Shown here: positions 50,715 to 51,018 of the stretch, in pieces
How positions within the stretch are numbered: position 1 is the first letter of the stretch
Layout of the letters: every line of letters begins with the position of its first letter
Sequence record: OR532803.1
From: Klebsiella phage RCIP0009
Reading direction: 5' to 3' (one strand)
Length of the DNA: 64,000 bases
Made by a program: the position numbers and the translations under genes
The notes under the pieces: model-generated
Told to the model about the DNA's origin: nothing
The model's database searches: none
The model's input: the letters and a program-made list of their open reading frames with translations, nothing else

Positions 50715-51018
50715 ACATACCTCAATTTTTCAAAGAACGGGGTTATTGTAGTAACTTACGAAATGAAGTCAATACAAAAGACCATAAAAATTTTGATCAA
50801 TAATACTTGATCTGATCAAATTTATGATCTATAATTTATTAATTAATAATTATTTTACTACAATGATCATTGTAGGTCAAGTACTAAAATCAATAAATTT
50901 TATATAATTTAGATCTGATCTATAGATCATTAGATCTACTTTAACCTTAAATAATATAGAATGAAATTTGATTTTGTCTACAGTTATTATATAATATTCT
51001 TAACTTCAAAGAGGAAAT
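50715..51018. promoter_or_regulatory. AT-rich divergent intergenic region with clustered GATC/TAGATC iterons; candidate origin or regulatory region
   Basis: 9 GATC sites (50795, 50809, 50814, 50826, 50865, 50912, 50917, 50925, 50933) within 142 bp of AT-rich DNA; three TAGATC repeats; sigma70-like TTGATT-16-TATAAT at 50968-50995 facing gene 55. Confidence 0.5.

Follow-up and report, generated by a model that had tools for sequence, protein, structure and literature searches.

A GATC-rich, easily melted spacer between rnh and gene 55 of a Klebsiella Slopekvirus as one of three candidate replication origins

What could be the role of a dense cluster of GATC tetranucleotides placed in strongly AT-rich DNA between two divergently transcribed phage genes? 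This question is raised by the rnh/55 spacer of Klebsiella phage RCIP0009, found in a stretch of 64,000 nucleotides of sequence record OR532803.1 (hereafter the window; coordinates refer to it unless another genome is named). The source phage, a T4-like myovirus of Klebsiella, is a Slopekvirus and belongs to the KP15/KP27/Matisse/BL02 group. Around the spacer (49700-52200) the window is 99.6-99.9% identical to phages of this group, and over its full length it shows 96-99% identity to BL02 with some indels; the complete genome of BL02 was used as the reference for genome-wide scans and that of RB43 for comparison. A preliminary description of the sequence had proposed either a candidate replication origin or a Dam-sensitive control region. 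Sequence comparison suggests, with a probability of roughly 0.4, that the cluster is the core of one of three Slopekvirus candidate origin/DNA-unwinding elements of the T4 oriF kind. The three elements may be regarded as the best candidates so far for the replication origins of this phage.

The spacer is exactly delimited by rnh on the minus strand (49779-50714) and gene 55 on the plus strand (51019-51546). GATC starts at 50795, 50809, 50814, 50826, 50865, 50912, 50917, 50925 and 50933, and all nine sites counted in the preliminary description within 142 bp (50795-50936) were recovered at the claimed positions; the TAGATCTGATCTATAGATCATTAGATCTA string quoted there was located at 50910-50938. 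The wording of TGATC and TAGATC repeats was also correct, as the base 5' of GATC is T at six sites and A at three. It had been stated that well under one site would be expected, and for the 142-bp core mononucleotide composition gives 0.22 and dinucleotide shuffling 0.92, nine sites being reached in none of 5000 shuffles. The core has about 20% G+C, of which 64% falls within GATC (18.5% G+C in 50800-50999). A background count over the whole window gave 411 sites (6.4 per kb, 1.74 times the mononucleotide expectation), and every other 150-bp stretch held four or fewer. The GATC cluster is real and far above chance. Among the 1140 GATC sites of the complete BL02 genome the rnh/55 locus shows the highest density, and the gp3/ORF191 locus is the sole other one with 7 GATC per 150 bp. 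Exactly three BL02 segments longer than 300 bp have a G+C content of 25% or less, namely rnh/55, gp3/ORF191 and gp24/uvsY, and they carry 9, 9 and 6 GATC. No like density was found across AT-rich intergenic DNA, since the shorter AT-rich segments of BL02 hold 0-1 GATC; GATC richness is therefore a trait of this three-locus family and not of AT-rich intergenic DNA generally.

The family shares a dyad module of about 75 bp, which can be written as CTTGAyy-N12-TGATC-TATAAT, about 14 A/T, and ATTTTA-N17-GrTCAA. Four copies are distributed over the three BL02 loci with a mean column identity of 76%, and CTTGA, TGATCTATAAT, ATTTTA and TCAA are invariant in all of them. Every copy has a TTGATC-type -35 hexamer carrying GATC, and a TGATC abutting TATAAT. 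The string GATCTATAAT is found six times in the BL02 genome: in each of the four modules, at the uvsY ribosome-binding site and inside gene 18. When the spacer was used as a BLAST query it was found at four places per genome in nearly all Slopekvirus records, and it was 99-100% identical in 108 of the 115 records with a match. A pattern scan of IMG/VR (CTTGA-N14-TGATCTATAAT) returned multiple copies per contig solely in Slopekvirus contigs, the remaining 100-odd matches being single and at chance level. The same three loci rank first to third genome-wide as the least stable duplex DNA of BL02 in a nearest-neighbour stability scan, both at 40 bp and at 100 bp, with z-scores of 4.6-6.4 against 3.6 for the next best segment. 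In the rnh/55 spacer the 40-bp segment 50820-50859 is the third least stable genome-wide (free energy dG of -36.6 kcal/mol, z 4.6).

The rnh/55 spacer is moreover the main transcription divergence of the genome, all 49 genes on its left being minus-strand and about 50 on its right plus-strand, and the cumulative GC-skew minimum falls within it. A sister copy stands directly upstream of uvsY, and the T4 record has oriF at the promoter and 5' end of that gene. In T4, oriF (ori(uvsY)) and oriG (ori(34)) consist of a promoter with an A+T-rich DNA-unwinding element directly downstream, at which an R-loop transcript primes the leading strand; oriE, oriF and oriG occur at transcription divergence and skew-shift points, the T4 origins share no sequence motif and origin choice is still an open question (Kreuzer and Brister 2010, PMC3016281). 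The Slopekvirus loci resemble oriF and oriG in that a predicted promoter is followed within about 100 bp by an A+T-rich, easily melted tract, and they resemble the T4 origins in being present in several copies per genome at transcription divergence points, one of them just upstream of uvsY. They differ in other respects. The promoters of T4 origins are MotA-dependent middle promoters, whereas here they are of the sigma70 early type, MotA and AsiA being absent (also in RB43); the predicted promoter pair faces across the tract; the copies are homologous, while T4 oriF and oriG share no sequence; and T4 origins have no GATC clustering.

In the rnh/55 copy the two predicted promoters that form the halves of the module, P_A and P_B (Table 1), face each other with predicted starts about 3 nt apart (plus strand about 50842, minus strand about 50845). 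As their -10 hexamers bracket a shared G/C-free tract, the same DNA would be melted whichever way RNA polymerase is bound. Transcripts from the module, aided by negative supercoiling behind the outward promoters, could open this tract and might prime replication in one or both directions, from promoters that would be early sigma70-type instead of middle-mode.

Table 1. Features of the rnh/55 spacer (coordinates of the window; promoters and other functional names are predictions)
Feature	Position	Strand	Remarks
rnh/55 divergent spacer	50715-51018		304 bp, 22% G+C; first of three copies of the AT-rich, GATC-rich Slopekvirus element
Outward promoter-like site for rnh	50745-50772	-	TTGACT-16-TACAAT; kept in RB43-type relatives
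Left GATC cluster	50793-50829		4 sites: 50795, 50809, 50814, 50826
13-bp palindrome TTGATC-T-GATCAA	50807-50819		within left GATC cluster
P_A, rightward sigma70-like promoter	50807-50835	+	TTGATC-17-TATAAT; left half of dyad module
G/C-free tract	50830-50857		28 bp; both -10 hexamers and gap; candidate DNA-unwinding element
P_B, leftward sigma70-like promoter	50852-50880	-	TTGACC-17-TAAAAT; right half of dyad module
Perfect 18-bp palindrome CTACAATGATCATTGTAG	50858-50875		fifth GATC at centre; inside P_B spacer
Right GATC array	50910-50938		TAGATC-T-GATCTA-TAGATC-AT-TAGATCTA; 4 sites in 25 bp
TTAAATAATATAGA motif	50947-50960	+	about 10-20 bp upstream of gene 55 promoter -35 hexamer
Outward promoter-like site for gene 55	50968-50995	+	TTGATT-16-TATAAT; kept in RB43-type relatives
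Gene 55 ribosome-binding site AGAGGA	51010-51015	+	from sequence

A further view of the three loci is offered by RB43-type relatives. RB43, RB16, GAP161, JC221, Phynn and EcRAM-01 possess an rnh/55 spacer of equal size that holds only 1-3 GATC, and its centre is an inverted repeat (GAGCGAAGCGA...ACGAACGNAGTGAGTG and the complement) around an AT-rich core. The complete RB43 genome contains this palindromic element of about 150 bp in exactly three copies, at rnh/55, gp3/ORF200 and gp24/uvsY. The string GAGCGAAGCG is confined to these copies, whose AT cores are near-identical and are enclosed by G+C-rich inverted-repeat arms of about 38 bp, and the nested dyad with its inner stem is maintained by compensatory changes among RB43, GAP161, JC221, Phynn and EcRAM-01. 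At the rnh/55 and uvsY loci the RB43 element is flanked by strong outward-facing promoters, and the three RB43 loci are likewise the three least stable duplex segments of that genome (40 bp and 100 bp). The elements of both groups thus agree in their loci, similar size, dyad symmetry, extreme instability and outward promoters; they differ in that their sequences are unrelated and that the RB43-type core has 0-1 GATC and no evident internal sigma70 promoters. No published description of the RB43 three-copy element was found in the literature, and gp55- and UvsY-based searches yielded no third lineage with another version of the element. Position, copy number, dyad symmetry and extreme meltability, and not GATC, are conserved between the genera; GATC is a layer specific to Slopekvirus, added to an older kind of element. 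Because RB43-type elements do without GATC, it is unnecessary for any function common to both genera. The idea that GATC is essential to the locus is not supported by this comparison, as all six of these phages have 1-3 sites and another palindromic element.

Several points weigh against an origin function and have to be set beside the evidence above. All promoters discussed here are in silico sigma70 consensus matches. The GC-skew minimum is not independent evidence because it coincides with the gene-strand switch. Exact synteny with T4 origins is limited to the uvsY copy: the T4 record has oriG at 152947, 2.2 kb inside gene 34, so that the rnh/55 copy has no positional match, and oriE lies inside gene 5, 3.4 kb from gene 3, while the gp3 copy is 3-4 kb from the oriE-equivalent position. 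The preliminary description had invoked ori(34) as lying next to rnh in T4; this is not borne out by the T4 record, and in the phage studied here gene 34 is found at about 4.5-8.2 kb of the window and does not adjoin rnh. T4 oriF itself is not extremely AT-rich, nor is the DNA upstream of uvsY AT-rich in T-even-type phages, hence the equation of the least stable DNA with an origin is without precedent in the T4 family. Clusters of GATC are missing from the RB43-type elements at the shared loci. Finally, no homologs of MotA or AsiA were detected in BL02 or RB43 by tblastn with the T4 proteins, in line with Nolan et al. 2006; with both absent, the middle-promoter mechanism of T4 cannot hold in a literal sense, and an origin of literally that kind was rejected for that reason. 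Literature searches on Slopekvirus and RB43 origins or GATC clusters, transcription start sites, the motif strings and PhageTerm results returned nothing that describes these elements.

The preliminary description drew its origin proposal in part from another group of replicons. E. coli oriC and P1 oriR are Dam/SeqA-controlled, DnaA-dependent origins. The likeness lies in dense GATC within AT-rich DNA, in Dam-methylated DNA (as determined for KP15, see below) and in a GATCT with a run of A/T behind it, the arrangement of the oriC 13-mers; of the 11 positions specified in the 13-mer GATCTnTTnTTTT, GATCTATAATTTA agrees at 9, which is weak evidence in AT-rich DNA. The differences are those of a lytic T4-like phage with its own replisome, its own Dam and three copies of the element, in which neither DnaA boxes nor RepA-type iterons are present. 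No DnaA box (TTATCCACA-like, one mismatch or less) was found in 50715-51018, and the 23 found in the window overall correspond to chance level. The analogy with oriC and oriR therefore holds for the GATC cluster in AT-rich DNA and fails for the initiator sites. Nor can the sites be called iterons in the strict sense, as the preliminary description did: the longest direct repeat is 9 nt, occurring twice 103 bp apart, there is no regular phasing (GATC spacings of 5, 8, 8, 12, 14, 39 and 47) and the sites share no unit other than GATC itself, so an iteron arrangement of the T4 oriE type was not found either. What stands of the origin proposal are other origin-like traits, namely three homologous least-stable loci, the divergence point and the sister copy at uvsY, and the locus may be considered a good candidate origin, neither oriC-type nor iteron-type, on grounds stronger than those first given.

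The main rival explanation, possible though on balance doubtful, is that the spacer is a purely transcriptional, Dam-sensitive hub of strong early promoters with no origin function. This hub would drive the two large early blocks that diverge from it, leftward from rnh to rIIA and rightward from gene 55 to DNA ligase, and Dam state would modulate promoter strength by way of GATC in or next to the hexamers. IS10 pIN and dnaA P2 are Dam-sensitive promoters, and the module resembles them in that GATC forms part of a sigma70 -35 hexamer and touches the -10 hexamer, an arrangement repeated in all four modules; it is unlike them in the many sites per element, the free-standing array of four and the face-to-face promoters. 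A transcriptional role is favoured by four sigma70-like sites in the spacer, two per direction, all annotated in silico in the KP27 GenBank record as well. Among them is the sigma70-like promoter for gene 55 that had been noted at the outset, which is present at 50968-50995 and in the KP27 record. The strand distribution of the genes on both sides of the spacer and the Dam methylation of the phage DNA (KP15) are in line with such a role, and so is the count of sigma70 consensus matches, 35 in the whole genome, many of them within the three loci.

However, face-to-face promoters with starts about 3 nt apart would be mutually exclusive, which is odd for maximising expression. At the uvsY locus of both Slopekvirus and RB43-type phages, one of the two paired promoters is directed antisense into the terminal part of the late gene 24; because this promoter has no gene to express, a role beyond gene expression is argued for. 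In RB43 the gene-proximal promoters are already strong and conserved, yet the central element is kept without evident sigma70 promoters of its own. The right array of four GATC lies outside any promoter match, and conservation at three loci across genera despite complete sequence turnover is left unexplained by transcription alone. A related comparison concerns the PeSL cassettes of RB49 and phi1, which are said to combine an early promoter with a stem-loop terminator and to be numerous, in hyperplastic regions. The present elements are similar as repeated intergenic cassettes with early-type promoters in a pseudo-T-even phage; in contrast to PeSL, they occupy three loci only, none hyperplastic, and no terminator-like hairpin was found in the spacer. 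Identity with PeSL cassettes was rejected on these grounds.

The virion DNA of KP15, a near-identical phage, was almost completely cut by DpnI and thus carries methylated GATC (PMC3620542). A D12-class adenine methylase is encoded by the phage, and with the DpnI sensitivity of KP15 DNA this leads one to expect that the GATC sites of the spacer are methylated too. Overlap of GATC with promoter recognition elements is present, as TTGATC serves as -35 hexamer and TGATC abuts TATAAT. The sites in the -35 hexamers, against the -10 hexamer and in the flanking arrays would be methylated by phage or host Dam, and because of their placement in and against the hexamers we infer that promoter use, melting or SeqA binding could be adjusted by their methylation state. 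The infecting chromosome would be fully methylated and become hemimethylated once the first fork has passed, so that origin firing might possibly be restricted to early infection.

A far-reaching version of the proposal combines all these elements, and as a whole it must be called speculative and rather improbable. According to it the phage would have three homologous origins, each with face-to-face early promoters melting a shared G/C-free tract, whose firing would be gated by the Dam methylation state of the promoter and array GATC: on for the fully methylated infecting chromosome, off or SeqA-bound when hemimethylated. An unrelated, cruciform-capable element would perform the same task at the same loci of RB43-type phages. 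If true, this would be a methylation-based analogue of the change that T4 makes from origin-dependent to recombination-dependent replication, and these would be the first origins defined in Straboviridae other than T4, as well as the first in a virulent phage to be gated by methylation.

One deposited record deserves separate mention in this context. The CPRSB sequence (OM971649.1) differs from the window in 50700-51030 almost solely at GATC, five of the nine sites being changed G->A, and it is the only spacer variant losing GATC; over a 50-kb stretch, about 46 kb of which aligned with BL02, 51 of 318 GATC were substituted, mostly G-to-A and C-to-T. The record is heavily frameshifted with fragmented genes. 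Its GATC loss was taken as a probable methylation-linked base-calling artefact and not as a sign of selection, and the base-calling errors are probably indirect evidence of N6-methyladenine at GATC sites.

Less likely again is the explanation that the GATC palindromes (TTGATC-T-GATCAA, TAGATC-T-GATCTA and TAGATCTA) are operator- or iteron-like sites for a phage or host protein other than Dam or SeqA. Such a protein would be an initiator, an early-transcription repressor or a nucleoid-organising factor, and the RB43 arms (GAGCGAAGCGA...ACGAACGNAGTGAGTG) would be the sites of its diverged counterpart. The two 13-bp palindromes of the same form, the recurrence of GATCTGATC at 50809, at 50912 and in the gp3/ORF191 locus, and the five TAGATC in the same orientation at the uvsY locus are consistent with it, as are a dyad symmetry of the region above that of shuffled sequence (z -3.3) and the exchange of motif between genera at conserved positions, as expected under co-evolution of a protein and its site. 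On the other hand, the bases flanking GATC are plain A/T, the sites have no longer motif in common, the spacing is irregular and no candidate protein emerged. Among the BL02 open reading frames without RB43 counterpart a Pfam scan recognised only a DksA/TraR zinc finger and DUF4326, the others being unknowns; the open reading frame beside the gp3/ORF191 locus (phrog_7322) was considered as a co-diverging specificity factor and rejected, being 74% identical between genera.

It is very improbable that the locus is a methylation-controlled cleavage and packaging site like P1 pac. P1 pac is said to comprise two clusters of Dam hexamers, TGATC(A/G), flanking a central cut region and to go with a PacA/PacB-type terminase, and the rnh/55 copy resembles it in having, from left to right, four TGATC(A/T), a palindrome and four further GATC inside 142 bp; in addition, several assemblies break at these loci. 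The two-cluster geometry nevertheless fits loosely and in the rnh/55 copy only. It is absent from the other two copies, and at the uvsY locus the GATC sites are 39-54 bp apart. T4-type packaging is headful and has no strict pac site, and both terminase genes of this phage, small and large, are of the T4 type. The GATC clusters are absent from RB43-type relatives, and the repeated modules are the simpler explanation of the assembly breaks, those at the gp3/ORF191 and uvsY loci giving contigs of 35 kb and 141 kb. Equally hard to credit is a selfish or neutral repeat resembling a miniature inverted-repeat transposable element with incidental GATC, which would account for a short repeated element with dyad symmetry and for the RB43 terminal inverted repeats of about 38 bp around an AT core but not for the occupation of the same three loci in two genera (and of rnh/55 by the RB43-type element in further Pseudotevenvirus-like phages), the 99-100% identity of the spacer in 108 of 115 matching records, the stems maintained by compensatory changes or the concentration of 64% of core G+C in one tetranucleotide, which is not a neutral pattern.

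The interest of the three candidate origins is easily stated. Experimentally mapped replication origins are available for T4 itself only. In more than 100 near-identical genomes of therapeutic Klebsiella phages and in the RB43 group, three short, easily recognised homologous elements at conserved positions constitute the most meltable DNA and offer compact, directly testable candidate origins. Two unrelated sequence solutions at the same three loci amount to a natural experiment, and the GATC layer provides a way to ask whether phage-encoded Dam regulates anything beyond anti-restriction.

Some further features of the rnh/55 spacer complete its description. The outward promoters of rnh and gene 55 enclose a centre of about 195 bp. 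The left GATC cluster overlaps the -35 hexamer and spacer of P_A, one of its GATC being part of that hexamer and another touching the -10 hexamer (TGATCTATAAT), and the right array is free-standing, outside every good promoter match. The TTAAATAATATAGA motif is kept at the same place, at 10-14 of its 14 bases, in RB43, RB16, GAP161, EcRAM-01, Phynn and JC221, although the surrounding spacer differs. Rfam gave no match at E<=1 in 50600-51100, and a scan of the uvsY locus was also free of matches, so no known RNA family appears to be involved.

The copy upstream of uvsY is more variable among Slopekviruses (mostly 95-99% identity) than the rnh/55 copy (mostly 99-100%). A single variant, RCIP0020, differs from BL02 137530-137845 at this locus by one GATC->GACC change, another site changed to GATT (two of five lost) and a 9-bp AT duplication. 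Downstream of uvsY.-2, outside the window, BL02 138436-138895 is a non-coding stretch of about 460 bp between convergent genes and without annotated gene; it contains a promoter-like TATAAT and a terminator-like hairpin at its end, and no Rfam match was obtained for it at E<=0.1.

The module repeats have a practical consequence, namely breaks and mis-joins in deposited Slopekvirus assemblies. Such breaks or mis-joins were noticed in KP13MC5-1 (OP617746.1), phiKp_15 (LC768477/LC768478), PSKm2DI (MZ707156.1) and two IMG/VR loci, and other records and metagenome contigs end inside the gp3/ORF191 or the uvsY locus. The KP13MC5-1 record apparently switches at the central palindrome (171677 onward, equivalent to about 50873 of the window) into a 2,460-bp MobV mobilisable plasmid with 100% identity. 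Two parts of the window, 11400-14271 and 32789-33680, have no megablast alignment to BL02 while their flanks are 96-99% identical; they are strain-specific replacements or insertions, the first in the tail-fibre region and the second near the dCTPase/primase region. As for other tetranucleotides of the window, CTAG is strongly avoided (30 observed against 236 expected, 0.13x) and AGCT is low (0.49x).

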